Assembly: GCA_016840405.1 (NCBI GenBank)
Contig: JAEOSK010000001.1
Location: 94,820-158,819 of the forward strand
DNA: 64,000 bases
From: Candidatus Hermodarchaeum yapensis
GTDB taxonomy: Archaea > Asgardarchaeota > Hermodarchaeia > Hermodarchaeales > Hermodarchaeaceae
Reading direction: 5' to 3'
A program made the translations under genes and the position numbers. The notes beneath the pieces were generated by a model. It was not told where the DNA came from. It was given only the letters and a program-made list of their open reading frames with translations, and ran no database searches. This document shows, piece by piece, positions 1 through 35,963 of this stretch (the stretch's first letter is position 1; every line of letters begins with the position of its first letter).

Positions 1-1020
1 TACAAAGGTGATGTGGGCTCGGCCACCGCCCAACAGATTGAACGCAAGAACAGTGAGGCCTGGCGTTCATTCTTCGCCCTCCTCTGATTAAAAACGAAGG
101 GACGACTTCCATCCCATATCAACTGCGTAGGTCCACCGGGCTACTGGAAGTATCGTCGCACCAATACACGGAAGCTCATCATTATCTTTCGCTGTGATTC
201 CTATCGATTTGACGAGGGCATATTATATCTCCCCAAAAAATTGACTGTTAAATGGCAGGGGAAGCCCAAATGGGTGGGTTGGACCAAACAGGGTCAGCTA
301 ACCATCCACTATGATAATGTTACTGGCAAGTGGTATGCCCGTCAACCAGTGGAGGTTGAACCTCCCCATCAACCGCTCTCGCATCGGAGAGCCTTTGTTG
401 GCCTGGGCGTGATTAATTTGCTGACCGTTGCCCTGGATGGTGCGTGGCAAACGTTGGTCTACAGTGGGCGTTCGGTCTTGGCGGATTGGTGGTATCTCTC
501 TCATCGGATTGATCGGTTGAAGTCTCTAGCAAAGACGATAAACCATCGGAAATCAACGCATCGGATCCGTCGGTTATTTCGTCGTCGTCTGCGGTTACGC
601 CAGTATGTGAATACGGTGGTTCGTCGGGCGGTAGCTGATTTGTGGGCGCACGGTGTGTCGCAGCTGGTGGTAGGGGATCTCACTGGGATTCTGGCGGTAA
701 AAAGTGGTGGGCGGAAGGCTCATGCGATGACACATAATTGCTGGAGTCATCGGTATCTTATGCAACGGATCACGGAGGTGGCAGAAGAATATGGTATTGT
801 GGTGGAACGGGTGGATGAGCGGGGCACTTCAAGTAAGTGTCCACGCTGTCGGTCGAAGCGAGTAACACGACTAGGTCGCCTGTTCAAATGCCAGGAGTGT
901 AGATTAGAAGCTCATCGAGATGGTGTGGGCGTAGTCAACATAGGGCTTGCTCAAGGCGCAGCGTTCCCTGGGGAAGTCGTTAACGGGGCAGTGGCATGCC
1001 CTTTGGAGGTCAGTGGATGA
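1..1020 (+). pseudogene. tnpB: IS200/IS605-family TnpB, 5'-truncated by the window edge and inactivated
   Basis: Frame 1 reads as TnpB from base 1 (SATAQQIERKNSEAWRSFF) with an in-frame TGA at 85-87. RuvC-I reads AFVGLGV (catalytic Asp appears as Gly); CPRC/CQEC zinc finger; RuvC-III HRDGVGVVNI. Confidence 0.9.
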
Positions 1021-1060
1021 CATCCAAGAATCTCCCGGCTTTAGCCGTGGAGAGTGTCAA
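971..1060 (+). mobile_element. IS200/IS605 right end / omega-RNA scaffold of the first tnpB element
   Basis: GAAT + hairpin (CTCCCGGCTTTAGCCGTGGAGAG) + terminal TCAA at 1057-1060, the IS608-type GR/CR pair. Homologous to 35277-35360. Confidence 0.85.
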
Positions 1061-15915: not shown

Positions 15916-16738
15916 ACGAAGGTATCCCACTCGATTTTGTCCCTACTGTGCAACCGAAATAACGACGCCTACTAAATATTGTGTAACCTGCGGTGTAGAA
16001 ATTACATGGTCAATAAGAGAGGCGCAGGCCCCTCCATATCCCTGGTCACCCAGAACAACATATGTCATCACAATTATTACATATGGATTATTTTTCGTCC
16101 TGACATTCGCGCTACTTTTTTACTATCTTATCTTCTTTGGTATCCCACTCTATCTACTTGACACTATCTTAATCACAGATCCCTTCTTTACAATCATACT
16201 CACTTTAGGCGAAGTTACCTTCTTCCTGATTCCCTTTGCCATTGTAAAGAGATTGAAAGTCAGACGAGAGAAACTTGGCCTCTTTTCTGGGGGCATCAGG
16301 AACCTATCAAAAGATATTATATTGGGACTAGGCGTGGGCGTAGTTTTGGCTCCGCTAATCTTGCTCCTTGATCTGTATGAACTCCTTGCACCTGGAGCTG
16401 GTCCACCACCAACTCCCCCGACCCCCGTTGACCTGTTCTGGATGGGAATGCTGTGTCTTTCTGTGATTCTTATTATTGCACCCGCTGAAGAAGTGCTCTT
16501 TCGCGGGTTTATCCAAAACTCCCTAGATGCTCATTATGGTCGAATTGGAGGGCTCCTTGTATCCTCCATTATTTTCGGACTGGCTCATCTCAACCCGTTT
16601 ATTGGTGTCTTTCAAACAGTTGGAAGCATATTCCTCGGATTGCTATTCCAATGGCGAGGACGCCGTCTTGCCAGTCCAATTGTCGCTCATGCAACCTATG
16701 ATTGCTTGATAATAATCTTGGATGCCTTCCTTATCTAA
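15905..16738 (+). CDS. Zinc-ribbon + CPBP (Abi/CAAX, Rce1-like) intramembrane metalloprotease
   Basis: CPYC/CVTC ribbon; AEEVLFRG, FGLAH, HATYD motifs. Confidence 0.88.
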   Translation: MVAERRYPTRFCPYCATEITTPTKYCVTCGVEITWSIREAQAPPYPWSPRTTYVITIITYGLFFVLTFALLFYYLIFFGIPLYLLDTILITDPFFTIILTLGEVTFFLIPFAIVKRLKVRREKLGLFSGGIRNLSKDIILGLGVGVVLAPLILLLDLYELLAPGAGPPPTPPTPVDLFWMGMLCLSVILIIAPAEEVLFRGFIQNSLDAHYGRIGGLLVSSIIFGLAHLNPFIGVFQTVGSIFLGLLFQWRGRRLASPIVAHATYDCLIIILDAFLI

Positions 16739-16953
16739 ACCTCGAAAAGCTCCCGTTCGTCAGGCTGGGGACCACTCGCGGTGTTTAAATAAGTTTCTTG
16801 GCATCTAGATGTGAGGTCCTAGTCTGCGGTCCGAGAACCAAGGACATCTGACCGGGCAACATCGCCGGAACGGCGAGTAGAGCCTGTGGACCAGTCGGCA
16901 GGAGCCGATGGCATGAAGCAGGAAGCTCACACAATCAGATGTGGGCAGTTCAC
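16735..16953 (+). mobile_element. tnpB-less miniature IS200/IS605 element carrying an omega-RNA scaffold (family of the 44.3/46.2 kb elements)
   Basis: Left-end hairpin homologous to 44291-44330; TTTAAATA at 16784-16791; 3' part keeps GAGCCTGTGGA, GAAGCAGGAA and AGTTCAC with compensatory stem changes. Left boundary uncertain by ~8 nt. Confidence 0.85.
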
Positions 16954-16971
16954 CTAACGAAGACTCGTGCC

Positions 16972-19900
16972 TTAAAAAAGGGTGAGAAATGGGTTTCCAC
17001 ATAGACTGTAACTTAACCAGCTATGGAGAGGGGGACCTGTACTGGCTAGTTTTCGTCGTGTGTGGAGCATGGCAACAGCAATGGGATCCCCTCCATATAG
17101 CTGTCTAATCAGGTTTTGAGTAAAGGTGGGTTGTAACTTATGTTCTGGACGCCATCGTGTGAATACAATCGAGGGAGATCCAGCAGTGACGAGATGTCGT
17201 AGAAAACCAGCTAAACTCATTCCATTCTCCATGGGATCTATCCGCATCGAATCATCAAGCACAAGAATAGGTGCACCTTTGAATAGAGTTGTGACCCCGA
17301 TTTCAATCACTCGAAGACTATCCGGGTGTTGTAGTGGGATTTCGCCTTTACGATGGTGAAGGGTTGTGGGAGTTGAGAAAAAAAGAAGTGATCGGGGCTG
17401 CTCAAGGTTACTGGATAGCAAAGTCCGAGTAAAATCACTTCCAAAAAGAACAATTGGCTCAGTGATACCTTGGCGCGTGGGAACCGAGTCAAGAAATGAC
17501 TTGGCAATTGCTTCAGCCACTGCTCTACGCGAAGCCTGCTCTTCTGCACCTGAATAGACACCTAGTACAACTGAAGGCATTGTAGTCTGGGCTAATGCTT
17601 TAGTCTTTAACGTGCTTTCGAAAAATTGGAAATCCGGAGCCCATGCCATAGGATACTTGAGACCCCAGTATTCTTTTCCATCAAATACGAGTTCGAAGGG
17701 TACATTATTGAGAAATCCATCTGTGATGAATTGAAGAAATCCATAATTGTGGCTTTGGAGTTCCCGTTCAAGCCGACTCGGAATCAAACCGCGATATAGA
17801 AAGGATGCGATGTCTCTTAGATCCGCGATAGGAGGTAGTTCTTGAGTATTTTTGATTCCTTGGAGTGATTGTACAACTGAGGCTAAATCCGGTGAGATGG
17901 GTAAAGTATGGATACCGTGTCGACCGACATGGTCTAATGTAGTGACAATAATTCGTTGTTTTTCAAGTAGCACGTCATAGTTAATTAGAATCCACCGGCG
18001 GTCGGTAGGCATGAGGGTCATGAGTTTTTGTGGCATCTTATAATCTGAAGGCAACATCCCTCTTCCTGGGTCTGGACACGCTGCAGCGATTACGTTACGG
18101 TTGACATTCATTTTCTCCAATGATTCGACTAATTCAGTTCTAAGTGCCTTCCGACGGGATTTGTACTCTTCTTGGAGGAGACTTTTTGGAGGTAAATGTG
18201 CGAGTTGCTGTCGCAGACCGCTTATTTGTGTGAGAAGATTAGTTTCTTCTTGTAGTAATTTTGGTAAATCCACACAACGTTCATACCCGAGATTATCGGA
18301 TAGATAAGGATGCAATTTAGCGATTTTACGAGGGCTAGACCAATCAATCACCTTGTCTACAATCATTCGATCATTCTGTTTATGATAGTAATGTGTAGCA
18401 ATCAGGATTGCTTCTTCTAAGGCATGTTGCATTTGGTTCCACGCAAGAGGAAGATTTTCAATGTTGAAGTCAGTGGGAATATCAAGTTCTTCACCAATTG
18501 AAATTGCCTGCTCAATTAGCTTCAGGATGTCTGATATTCCAGCAGAATCAACCAGTAAATTCGCCTGTCGCAAAAGGGTTTGAAAATACTCTTCACGGTA
18601 TTCGGCTTCGCTGAAAATGCTTGCTGCCTTTTCATAATATTCCAAGGCTTTTGCTGAATCTTCTGCTTCAACTAAAGGCGCTAATTCAAAGTATAATCGA
18701 CCCTGAAATTTTTCCTCAGTGGATGGTTTAAGTGTCAAAAGAGAACCTTTGAGCGCATCTTTACGTAGGCTGGGTTTTTCGAGATTACGATAAGCCTCAG
18801 CCAATTGATAATATGCTTCACTTGTGTCAAAGCTGGGCTCAGCTTTAAACTCTTTAATCGCTTGACTTAGATACTGCGCAGCTTCCGTATACTCGGCATT
18901 TCGCATCAAAACCAATCCAAGATTAATCGCAGCCTCTGCACGAAGCTCCATTGGGAGTTGTTCATCATGAATGGCTTGTTCCAATATGCCTTTGACCTGC
19001 TCTGGTGCCTGAGCCTCTAAAGTTAGTTGTGTAAGACTGACCATCAGAGATGTGGCTAATAGAGTTCTTCCCTGAGCATTCGCTTCTTTTGCAGCTTTTT
19101 GTAAAAGCGGAAGGTCCTCTTCAAGTCGTTGGGTCCTTCGGGAAGCATTAAGCAATAAACGGTATCCCCGAATTTCCATCTTTTCTTCAGGATGATCTTT
19201 TAGCAACAAAAGAGCCATTTTGCTTTGTTCTATCGCTTCTGGATATCGTTCAAGTTGATAGAAGGTTTCACCTACTTCGATGTATATTTCTGCTTCTTCT
19301 TTCTGGCGTTTATGTTCTTGATAATAGCGAATAGCTTGTGTAAATTCCTGTTCCGATTGCTTATCTTTTCCAAGGCGTAGAAGTGCTTTTCCTTTCGAAA
19401 TGCGCGCGTGAATATTTCTAGCTTGTTCGCCTAATTGTGAGAATATCTCAATGGCTTTGTCAAATAGACGGAGTGCTCTCACATCCTGAACCAAGCGCTC
19501 TAAGATTTGAGCCACTATCAGTGCACTTTCTGCAAAGGCTATAGACGCTTTTTGGTTTTGGAAAAATTGGAGCGCTGCCTCGCCATGGGGGAGTGCCTGT
19601 TCTGGTTGATCTTTTTCCAATAAAAGACGTGCTGTGTGAAATTCGCATAAGGAGAGGCCTGTTTCATCATTGGCCTTTGAAAACACAGTTCGAGCTTGTT
19701 CGATGTGTTCTTCTGCCTTGTCCAGGTTTCCCTCAGCTTGGTAAATGCGTGCTACTCCAAGAAGTGCATGAGCCCTTGGTGTCGGTTTTCCTGCTGTTCC
19801 CCATAATTCGATTAGTTGTCTTAGGACCCTTTCTGCGTCATCGTACGCAGCAAGCTTGTGAAGGATACTAGCATATTCTGTAAGCGCTTTACCACGAAGT

Positions 19901-34043: not shown

Positions 34044-34958
34044 TTAGAATTCACTTATTTTTTCCGCGCTCTTTGCAGTGAATTCTGCAGTGTTGCCAAA
34101 TATATAGGCTACAGGTTCAATGCCGAAATAGCCTTTGTCAATGATGACATCAAACGAGACCTTACTGGCAAGTGCTTCAGTGATTGCTGTCAACAGAGCC
34201 TGATCTGAATCCGCTTCGGTTTCCACTCGTTCTCGAACAACTTCGATATGACGAAGCTTCAGTTGGTCGAATTTTGTTTCCATTCCTTTTGTATATTTTA
34301 TAACGATGGCTACTCGTTTTTCTGGATACTGCTGTTGTACTAGAAGGAGGATTTCTCCTAGGTGCTTCGAGGCTCCAAATTCTGGTCCGGTGAATGTGTG
34401 GGCACGGGTTTTATGAACACTAATTCGACTAGGGAAACCTGCGATGTCGTCAACGGTTACTGCATCAGGTAAGCTCATAACAAGTTGGGATTGAACTTGG
34501 GGAATTAGGTTTGGAAAGGTTGAAGACGCGCGTAAAATCTCCATACTTTTTAAGAGATTCTCTAATATGTCTGAACGAGGATCTGGGGCGACACCTCTAA
34601 TGCAGACCTCACAAGTTTCTAATTCCGGGTTTTCGATGCGGTGCAACCGACATAATAGACCTCCAATTTTCTGGCTTTGACAGAAAATACAAAGTTGTTC
34701 GATACTTTCGTCTAGTGGTTGCCTTTCCTTTGACATTTTTTCAGCAAAGTCTCTTGCTGCCTTTCTTACATCTGGAGTGTAGTATTGTTCAAATCGATCG
34801 ATTTGTTTTAGTCCTCTTGACACGCTGGCCTGTGTGACCCCAAGAGCCTTAGCAATTTGATTTTGAGTGAATCCATAATCGGTAGCTAGATGTTGACTAA
34901 TTAAGGCTCGAAGCGCAGGCAATAATTGATTAGCCATAATTTCGCAGGGTGGACGCAC
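34044..34958 (-). CDS. ThiR-like regulator: HTH fused to ThiN (thiamine-phosphate synthase) domain
   Basis: MRPPCE...LPALRA, TQNQIAKALGVTQASVS, LIPQV, AGFPSRI, PEFGASKH, GYFGIEP. Confidence 0.8.
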   Translation of the reverse strand: MRPPCEIMANQLLPALRALISQHLATDYGFTQNQIAKALGVTQASVSRGLKQIDRFEQYYTPDVRKAARDFAEKMSKERQPLDESIEQLCIFCQSQKIGGLLCRLHRIENPELETCEVCIRGVAPDPRSDILENLLKSMEILRASSTFPNLIPQVQSQLVMSLPDAVTVDDIAGFPSRISVHKTRAHTFTGPEFGASKHLGEILLLVQQQYPEKRVAIVIKYTKGMETKFDQLKLRHIEVVRERVETEADSDQALLTAITEALASKVSFDVIIDKGYFGIEPVAYIFGNTAEFTAKSAEKISEF

Positions 34959-34987
34959 AGACTAGCACCTCCTCCAATTCTGTTTAC

Positions 34988-35360
34988 AAAGAATTGTGGT
35001 GAGAAAGTCCCCGATTTCAAGCGCGGGGATGAATCATGGAGTTTTTATAGATTTCCACCGAAAAACCATTGCGGTCAGCCGCTGACGGATCGTAATCCCC
35101 AGAACACCACGCTCCAAACCGCTCTCGGGGAGACCATCAGCAACATGGCATCCAGAATCAACGGGCACCAGACCCGTTCCCAACCGCATCCAACATCGAA
35201 CCCCTCATAGGGCTTGCACCAGTGATGACGGCGACCAAAGACGCGGTGACGCGTCTGCGGGCTCAGTTGTGAGGTGGAAGTCGGTAACGGGGTGGTGGCA
35301 CCCCCCGTGGAGGACCAAAGCCTCCACGAATCTCCCGACATCGGTCGTGGAGAGTGTCAA
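34988..35360 (+). mobile_element. tnpB-less miniature IS200/IS605 element (family of the element ending at 1060) with structured RNA interior and omega-RNA scaffold
   Basis: TTAC target at 34984-34987; AAAG guide at +17..+20 followed by the left hairpin; TATA 35042-35049; right end GAAT-hairpin-TCAA homologous to 971-1060. Confidence 0.88.
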
Positions 35361-35399
35361 GTCTTCACCACAATAGGGCTGACTAAAAGAGTTTCCATC

Positions 35400-35963
35400 T
35401 CAAGTAGCTCGGAGATAACGTGTCAGAGCATCAGTAGGTTCGGGGAGGTTTTGTTGAATGGTAGTACATAAAGTTTCAAACACTAAATCGACACGCGTAT
35501 CCGTTTTGGCTGAACAACTAACAAATCCCGCAATCTCATGTGTTTTACAAAAGCTCTGAATTTCCTGACGTGACACACACGATGAAAGATCCGCTTTGTT
35601 TCCGGCTAGAATAATGGCGTGACGATGAGAAGGATGGGCATATCGTTGAAGAAGGTTGAGCCAGGAGGTTCCTTCTGCCAATGAATTAGGTCTTGTTTGA
35701 TCAAACACTAAAATTACGGCACTTGCGCCAGAACAAAATTGTGGCATGAGAAATCGGAAACGATCTTCACCGCTAAGATCCCAAATGCTCAGATTTAGTG
35801 GCCCTTCTTCCCCATATACGATTTTCTGAGCAAAATTAACGCCAATAGTAGGCGAGACATCGATGAAGTCTTTGAAGACATATTTGTGAACCAAACTAGT
35901 TTTTCCAACCTGGCTAGCACCTGCAACCAGTATTTTGACTAGCGGTGCGTGGATTCTTGCCAC
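35400..35963 (-). CDS. Rab/Ras-like small GTPase
   Basis: GASQVGKTS, PTIGVNF, WDLSGEDRF, GNKAD, CSAK; no C-terminal prenylation motif. Confidence 0.92.
   Translation of the reverse strand: MARIHAPLVKILVAGASQVGKTSLVHKYVFKDFIDVSPTIGVNFAQKIVYGEEGPLNLSIWDLSGEDRFRFLMPQFCSGASAVILVFDQTRPNSLAEGTSWLNLLQRYAHPSHRHAIILAGNKADLSSCVSRQEIQSFCKTHEIAGFVSCSAKTDTRVDLVFETLCTTIQQNLPEPTDALTRYLRAT

Follow-up and report, generated by a model that had tools for sequence, protein, structure and literature searches.

What is the compact segment that begins at position 34988 of a 64,000-nucleotide stretch of Candidatus Hermodarchaeum yapensis DNA? Throughout, we call this whole stretch the window, and positions refer to it unless a contig is named. 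A preliminary description read the segment as a miniature insertion sequence in which tnpB had been replaced by about 230 nt of highly structured RNA fused to an omega-RNA, and proposed a class of mobile non-coding elements whose extended RNA may carry some added function. The observation as a whole is confirmed. We find that the segment is very probably a PATE (palindrome-associated transposable element) or standalone omega-RNA element: a non-autonomous member of the IS200/IS605 family whose ends resemble those of IS608. The evidence supports a miniature, protein-free element with a TATA box resembling a promoter, an omega-RNA scaffold, and RNA in addition to the scaffold of its full-length relatives.

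The element is discrete, 373 bp long, and its extent is exact by alignment with empty sites in two congeners. In these sites (G002, locus L017; G005, locus L018) ...TATAC is joined to GCCTTCACCACAAT; immediately 5' of the junction, G002 and G005 read TATAC and TATTC, respectively, versus TTTAC in the window. The G002 sequence is ...CCATTGTTGTATAC|GCCTTCACCACAATAGCCC..., and that of the window is ...CCAATTCTGTTTAC|(373 bp)|GTCTTCACCACAATAGGGC.... Since the G002 empty site joins the flanks directly, the element spans exactly 34988-35360. Thus the left boundary of the originally proposed span, 34988-35380, stands, but the right boundary lies at 35360, and the remaining 20 positions are flank, where the guide of the omega-RNA is expected. 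Insertion 3' of TTTAC without target duplication, as seen by comparing the window with the congeners, is the signature of the IS200/IS605 family. The flanks of the window locus are 91-93% identical to those of the two congeners. Filled sites were found in DNA contigs from estuary and sediment sequencing runs, and no empty-site contig at the window locus was seen among the DNA contigs from such samples. The main parts of the element and its borders are as follows.

34983-34987, + strand: TTTAC, the target site and TAM, in the host flank and outside the element (from the empty sites and the paralogue positions)
34988-35360, + strand: the entire element, non-autonomous and of IS200/IS605 type (present here and precisely missing from two congeners; no conserved ORF; no Pfam match)
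34988-35041, + strand: left end (from DNA folding; its motif recurs in the left ends of further IS copies in the genome)
35004-35007, + strand: AAAG, the left guide tetranucleotide, paired with TTAC at 34984-34987 (read directly)
35008-35013 with 35024-35029, + strand: left imperfect-palindrome hairpin TCCCCG/CGGGGA, 6 bp, starting 20 nt from the cleavage site and followed by GATGAATC (from DNA folding)
35042-35049, + strand: TATA box TTTTTATA, a candidate archaeal promoter, aligned in all three paralogues
35066-35204, + strand: 5' leader domain, about 140 nt, rich in C and A and predicted to form a three-way junction, of which the hairpin AACGGG..CCCGUU (35161-35178) is one part
35207-35360, + strand: omega-RNA scaffold, with homology to the 3' end of tnpB and the adjoining right end (by BLAST to two full-length copies and relatives)
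35328-35360, + strand: right end, consisting of GAAT (35328-35331), a 9-bp hairpin (35331-35353), then GTG, then the TCAA cleavage site (35357-35360) (from DNA folding)
35361-35380, + strand: guide position of the omega-RNA, in host flank GTCTTCACCACAATAGGGCT (assigned by its position 3' of the right end; the letters are present in the empty sites)

Direct reading of 34700-35700 showed the IS608-type ends and the other features at the positions originally given for them. The window copy has AAAG with TTAC on the left and TCAA on the right, and DNA folding places subterminal hairpins at both ends, without terminal inverted repeats. The GAAT at 35328-35331 is presumably the IS608-type right guide for TCAA. 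The right end is kept in 10 related ends, with compensatory changes among them. On the left, an arrangement of G.GAGAAAG, hairpin, GATGAATC and TATA is common to the left ends of other IS copies in the genome. The TATA box, noticed from the start at 35042-35049, is indeed present there and directly follows the hairpin and GATGAATC in several of these other left ends as well. Since it is aligned in all three copies of the element and stands in the same place in other IS left ends, we conclude that the left end probably carries the element's promoter. Transcription would then start at about 35070-35076, going by the usual TATA spacing. The only RNA run found was one whose metatranscriptome contig spans 34750-34941, in the neighbouring gene and outside the element.

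These ends invite comparison with IS608 of Helicobacter pylori, in which the left cleavage site is TTAC, the guide AAAG and the right cleavage site TCAA (PMC3201880). The likeness extends to TTAC as left cleavage and target site, to AAAG just 5' of the left hairpin and some 19-20 nt from the cleavage site, to TCAA on the right, and to subterminal imperfect palindromes in place of inverted terminal repeats. The element differs from IS608 in that it lacks both tnpA and tnpB and resides in an archaeon; moreover, TCAA lies 3 nt from the foot of the right hairpin here, versus 10 nt in IS608.

One peculiarity of the window copy should be mentioned separately. A perfect 10-nt inverted repeat connects the left end (34993-35002, ATTGTGGTGA) with the host flank past the right end (35365-35374, TCACCACAAT). 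The flank half is already present in the empty sites of the congeners, nothing like the repeat occurs in either paralogue, and a post hoc estimate puts its chance occurrence at about 3.5e-4. The repeat may be a coincidence, or it may reflect pairing between single-stranded transposon and target that favoured this insertion site. Engineered IS608 can be steered through extra pairing between end and target, in a geometry different from the one seen here (PMC5934647).

The element is not alone in its genome. Two diverged paralogues, at C67:52040-52420 and C65:73499-73879 (minus strand, 381 bp each), align to the window copy from the left end through TCAA, the three copies being 63-76% identical. 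A single-copy segment without covariation, which according to the preliminary description would speak against its reading, is therefore not what we find: there are three copies, and they covary. Specific target, absence of duplication and exact empty site are found for all three (TATAC|GCC..., TTTAC|TGC..., TTAC|TAC...). One paralogue site, TTTAC|TGCTCAACG, is empty in G002, G010 and G011; the other, (A)TTAC|TACTTAGTCC, is empty in G002 and now reads TTAG in the genome under study (the C67 copy). Common to the three copies are the leader of about 140 nt and an extra hairpin of about 40 nt with a K-turn-like loop.

How old is this protein-free lineage? Pairwise identity among the three copies is 35-49% in the left end, about 53% in the leader, 64-73% in the scaffold expansion described below and 73-78% in the 3' scaffold. 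Across the three sites the flanks are 91-94% identical between species. Flanks that differ by about 8%, set against copies that differ by 25-37%, indicate old paralogues that were relocated or separately acquired, and not a recent burst. Relocation would be allowed by non-replicative, single-strand transposition. Since the three copies share one junction, at CATAGGGC, they descend from a single protein-free ancestor, and since they share this deletion junction and yet are only 63-76% identical, the protein-free lineage must be old.

Other reduced relatives were encountered along the way. A different deletion derivative of the tnpB family occupies an orthologous site in two congeners (L015:1501-1850(-), G010:C20; L008:1501-1850(-), G014:C40); it keeps the tnpB leader, which is rich in C, and its break lies within the codons HRD...VNIG. 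Because its junction is different, protein-free derivatives of this tnpB family arose more than once. There are also solo right-end fragments of 30-75 nt that end in GGAGA(G/A)TGTCAA without tnpB or left end (L007:1501-1580(-), G010:C44; L014:1500-1533, G030:C1), and one such fragment sits in the genome of another family of the phylum. Within the window itself, 16735-16973 holds a second, unrelated protein-free mini-element, the one that the preliminary description places at 16.7 kb, with TTTAAATA and a different scaffold, and no sequence similarity was found between it and the element at 34988-35360.

Does the RNA part of the element replace tnpB, as first proposed, or derive from it? The scaffold starts at ATAGGGCTTGC (35207), which corresponds to the tnpB codons NIGLA and equals window 941-951, just past the last RuvC motif of TnpB. 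In a search of the element's own genome, 35276-35360 matches the termini of two complete tnpB elements; one is C14:94652-95879, which is window 1-1060, and the other is C27:22163-23387. From ATAGGGCTTGC to TCAA, the mini-element tracks the full-length scaffold apart from an insertion of about 40 nt. The claim that no tnpB coding remnant exists thus holds for 35050-35205 but fails from 35207 onward, where homology to the tnpB 3' end begins with the NIGLA codons. Likewise, the supposed 230 nt of highly structured RNA is better described as an ordinary scaffold of about 155 nt, built from tnpB 3' end and right end and carrying an expansion of about 40 nt, with a leader of about 140 nt making up the rest.

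The scaffold has the properties expected of an omega-RNA, namely homology to a tnpB 3' end plus right end and a conserved structure. The covariation first reported against the element ending at 1060 (TTGGAGG..TCCAA to GTGGAGG..CCTCCAC, and CGGC/GCCG to CGAC/GTCG) consists of real compensatory changes. Of the 23 predicted pairs in an alignment of 10 related ends, drawn from this genome and its congeners, 8 are compensated. The 3' domain folds well beyond shuffled sequences in all three copies (z-scores -4.2, -2.2 and -2.8). As for coding capacity, the three copies have no conserved reading frame in common, and no Pfam match was found. An open frame of 169 codons runs through the whole C65 paralogue (L003:1428-1937(-), G000:C65); stop codons close it in the two remaining copies, it has no Pfam match, and it probably arose by chance, though gene callers may annotate it.

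An RNAalifold consensus, derived from the same three sequences on which it was tested, has 84 pairs, of which 17 show compensatory double changes, versus 3-5 in controls with partners shifted by 1-3 columns, and 90% of its cells are paired. In its 3' domain, outer helices GGCUU/AAGUC and CACC/GGUG lead through an internal loop to an inner helix and a capping hairpin, followed by three 3' hairpins that full-length elements also have. The features of interest in this domain are as follows.

35217-35276, + strand: scaffold expansion, absent from full-length scaffolds, comprising a K-turn-like internal loop, an inner helix and a capping hairpin
35217-35225 opposite 35271-35276, + strand: K-turn-like loop, CACC-AGU-GA opposite GA-GGUG, present in all three copies
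35239-35256, + strand: capping hairpin AGACGCG-GUGA-CGCGUCU, with three of six pairs compensated across the three copies
35307-35327, + strand: helix GTGGAGG/CCTCCAC (read directly)

The consensus treats the helices of the preliminary description unequally. The capping hairpin is upheld, with loops GUGA, GUGG and GCGA in the three copies, and the box C-like GTGATGA is present at 35222-35228. The GUCAGC/GCUGAC hairpin, in turn, is not retained in the two paralogues, and the long G-U-rich helix, which the paralogues do not conserve either, gives way to GGCUU/AAGUC, CACC/GGUG and the inner helix.

The internal loop of the expansion has the geometry of a K-turn, with a C-stem, a 3-nt bulge and tandem G.A pairs, and its letters, (A/C)GUGA opposite (U)GA, are invariant in the three copies. 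This brings us to the suggestion that the extended omega-RNA has an added function: the K-turn-like expansion would bind L7Ae and so stabilise or assemble the ribonucleoprotein, and the 5' domain would be a functional module, whether a ribozyme, a signal for processing or a cargo RNA. The loop letters lend it some weight, as (A/C)GUGA and the UGA between CACC and GGUG are unchanged though the copies are only 64-73% identical in this region. So do the three compensatory pairs that maintain the capping hairpin, and the C65 copy, in which the K-turn register is perfect and fully fits the following helix. In the window and C67 copies, however, a Watson-Crick register that uses the A of GA competes with the K-turn (AUGAC/GUUGU and AUGAC/GUCAU, respectively). 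We therefore regard a true K-turn as plausible from the sequence. The extended scaffold is a modest novelty, the K-turn-like expansion being absent from full-length relatives.

The 5' domain bears on the same suggestion. Helices 4-6 of this domain speak for it, with 5 of 16 pairs compensated. On the other hand, every conserved hairpin of the domain is lost in one of the three copies, and folding z-scores of -2.2, -1.6 and -0.7 describe a weakly structured RNA that is, as noted, about 53% identical among copies. A covariance model of the leader (R1) matches only the three known copies, both in the class (19 genomes) and in the phylum (150 genomes sampled). Scans of public genome, viral and metagenome contigs for the motifs of the expansion returned only the organism's own contigs (Ga0209427) or chance matches. 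Smith-Waterman comparison with shuffles found no similarity between the leader and the first 200-450 nt of full-length elements, nor between it and the leader kept in the deletion derivative of G010 and G014. The leader thus aligns to neither tnpA nor tnpB, so that an alignment to decayed coding sequence, which had been named as one finding that would overturn the original reading, is not seen. It may nonetheless derive from the leader or the N-terminus of tnpB. As no homologue turned up in these searches beyond the three copies and conservation is weak, we conclude that the leader is lineage-specific and weakly constrained.

Searches for known RNA families were made across the whole window, where no Rfam model matched at gathering thresholds. 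Two candidates were considered and rejected. A C/D-box sRNA was suggested by the sole match at E up to 10, sR14 over 35218-35274, which scores 9.3 bits against a threshold of 38 bits (E about 7, chance level), and the interior of this interval forms a stable hairpin. For a group I intron, IStron or self-cleaving ribozyme, Rfam gave no hit, whether with its gathering threshold or with E values as high as 10. A tRNA scan found none, a scan for bacterial promoters and terminators gave nothing useful, and BLAST against a plasmid collection gave no match. The chance-level sR14 match and the lack of a ribozyme family weigh against an added function, as does the small sample of three copies in one organism. 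Altogether, we consider this suggestion unlikely. Whether by L7Ae binding, a processing signal or cargo RNA, an added role for the extra RNA is not supported, and the K-turn-like loop is compatible with the sequence.

Having neither tnpA nor tnpB, the element would depend on both in trans, and here we support the original proposal. Are these partners available? A Y1 TnpA (PF01797) was not found in the assembly, which is 86% complete, and among the 19 genomes of the class one (G013, on C208) encodes it. Both cognate tnpB copies are interrupted, C14:94652-95854 by two TGA codons and C27:22188-23387 by two TAG codons; an intact tnpB frame, of 395 aa, was seen only in the congener G013 (C91). The lesions in both full-length copies (C14:94652-95879; C27:22163-23387) are in-frame stops alone, with no frameshifts, and their omega-RNA ends are still conserved; the tnpB of one congener copy (G010:C46) has a single TAG. 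With both cognate tnpB genes stopped and no tnpA in the assembly, the copies are probably orphaned at present.

One might go further and regard the element as an inert relic, a dead mini-transposon, its transcription and mobilisation at an end and its RNA conservation a record of past selection. The disrupted tnpB genes, the tnpA gene missing from this genome and the rarity of TnpA in the class would fit, and so would the decay of the other two copies: their left ends are degenerate, the hairpins being weak or absent when the C65 and C67 DNA is folded, and the C67 cleavage site has mutated to TTAG. Yet the window copy retains its left-end hairpin, AAAG, TTAC, TATA box and right end intact. Furthermore, all three copies are missing at the orthologous sites in every congener examined, so they moved or arrived after the split of species whose flanks are still about 92% identical. 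The incompleteness of the assembly also counts against this explanation, which we judge to be possible but rather unlikely.

The neighbourhood raises a different alternative. The element lies between an HTH-ThiN gene (34044-34958, minus strand) and a gene for a Ras-family GTPase (35400-35963, minus strand), both assigned by Pfam. An archaeal source agrees with the Ras/Roc GTPases, the ThiN gene and the promoters of TATA type. The predicted transcript of the mini-element would be antisense to this GTPase-ThiN gene pair. The insertion splits a GTATAC motif, which in relatives may be the TATA box of the HTH-ThiN gene, and the element lies upstream of that gene's Shine-Dalgarno-like GGAGGAGGTG, at a distance of about 10 nt (window 34959-34990). 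So close an insertion could affect the HTH-ThiN gene, and one may ask whether the RNA has become a domesticated host guide or regulator, similar to TldR, or whether the locus is a host non-coding RNA gene that merely resembles a transposon end. Guides of this sort are known to serve nuclease-dead relatives of TnpB (PMC10705468). Nevertheless, the element is absent from the orthologous sites in all congeners examined and is not conserved across species. In addition, the guides of the three copies match their own flanks alone, and no second target with a TAM was found for them in their own genome. For lack of second-site targets we reject a domesticated guide acting in trans. We see no sign of domestication, and this alternative as a whole, including a host non-coding RNA gene, is highly improbable.

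We return, then, to a non-autonomous IS200/IS605 element and to the question of whether its kind is new. PATEs were named in Haloquadratum (PMC3119063). According to Meers et al., who reported elements of PATE type from Geobacillus, PATEs "often encode omega-RNAs", and these require TnpB in trans (PMC10055086). Standalone mobilised omega-RNAs act in trans (PMC10691335, crediting earlier work). Thus the proposed class of mobile non-coding elements had already been described. Like PATEs, the present element is protein-free, retains the left and right ends of IS200/IS605, uses the target tetranucleotide of the family without duplication, and carries an omega-RNA scaffold that needs TnpA and TnpB in trans. 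It differs from them in being archaeal with a putative TATA-box promoter inside its left end, in the greater length of its copies (373-381 bp) with their leader of about 140 nt, in a K-turn-like scaffold expansion of about 40 nt that full-length relatives lack, and in occurring as three old paralogues, 63-76% identical, with no recent burst. With the standalone omega-RNAs it shares a mobilised omega-RNA locus that lacks effector and transposase, in a genome where effector-containing loci of the same family exist; here, however, stop codons interrupt both of the matching effector genes in the assembly, so that action in trans is currently not supported. IStrons, which combine a group I intron with IS605 or IS607 ends and of which PATE forms exist (bioRxiv 10.1101/2023.11.20.567912), are alike in fusing a structured RNA to an omega-RNA within IS200/IS605-type ends. 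The difference is that no group I intron or ribozyme family is detected here and the 5' domain is small and weakly structured. We conclude that this kind of element is already known, and that what sets the present one apart is its size, its lineage-specific leader, its K-turn-like expansion and the age of its protein-free lineage.

How might such an element work? It would move as single-stranded DNA through a Y1 TnpA supplied in trans, inserting 3' of TTTAC without duplication, the pattern of insertion being the one observed. From the TATA box in the left end, an RNA of about 290 nt plus flank would be made, consisting of the weakly constrained leader, which may be trimmed off, the omega-RNA scaffold and a guide taken from the host flank. 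The candidate target of this guide is TTTAC-GTCTTCACCACAAT. By homology with known TnpB systems, a cognate TnpB in trans, together with this RNA, would cut the empty site (TTTAC followed by GTCTTCACC...), and recombination would restore the element. The protein-free lineage has evolved a scaffold expansion of its own, the hairpin with the K-turn-like loop.

A bolder version holds that an old protein-free lineage, freed from the coding constraint of tnpB, enlarged its omega-RNA with a leader and an archaeal K-turn hairpin that binds L7Ae, and that it persists and relocates even though its cognate tnpB genes are all dead. We think this quite unlikely. If it were true, the element would either use a non-cognate or unassembled TnpB and TnpA or have an RNA role beyond homing.

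What the locus provides is an archaeal standalone omega-RNA mini-transposon with resolved boundaries, supported by three empty sites, with IS608-like ends, a probable promoter in the left end and a structure backed by covariation. Its interest lies in the fact that it belongs to an old protein-free lineage rather than being a fresh deletion product, that its scaffold gained a hairpin without an overlying tnpB frame, and that the matching nuclease genes are broken. As things stand, the element is an addition to the catalogue and opens no new question. Should the K-turn prove genuine, it would tie an RNA-binding protein of archaea to the guide RNAs of OMEGA systems, and it would offer a natural example of how a guide-RNA scaffold grows.
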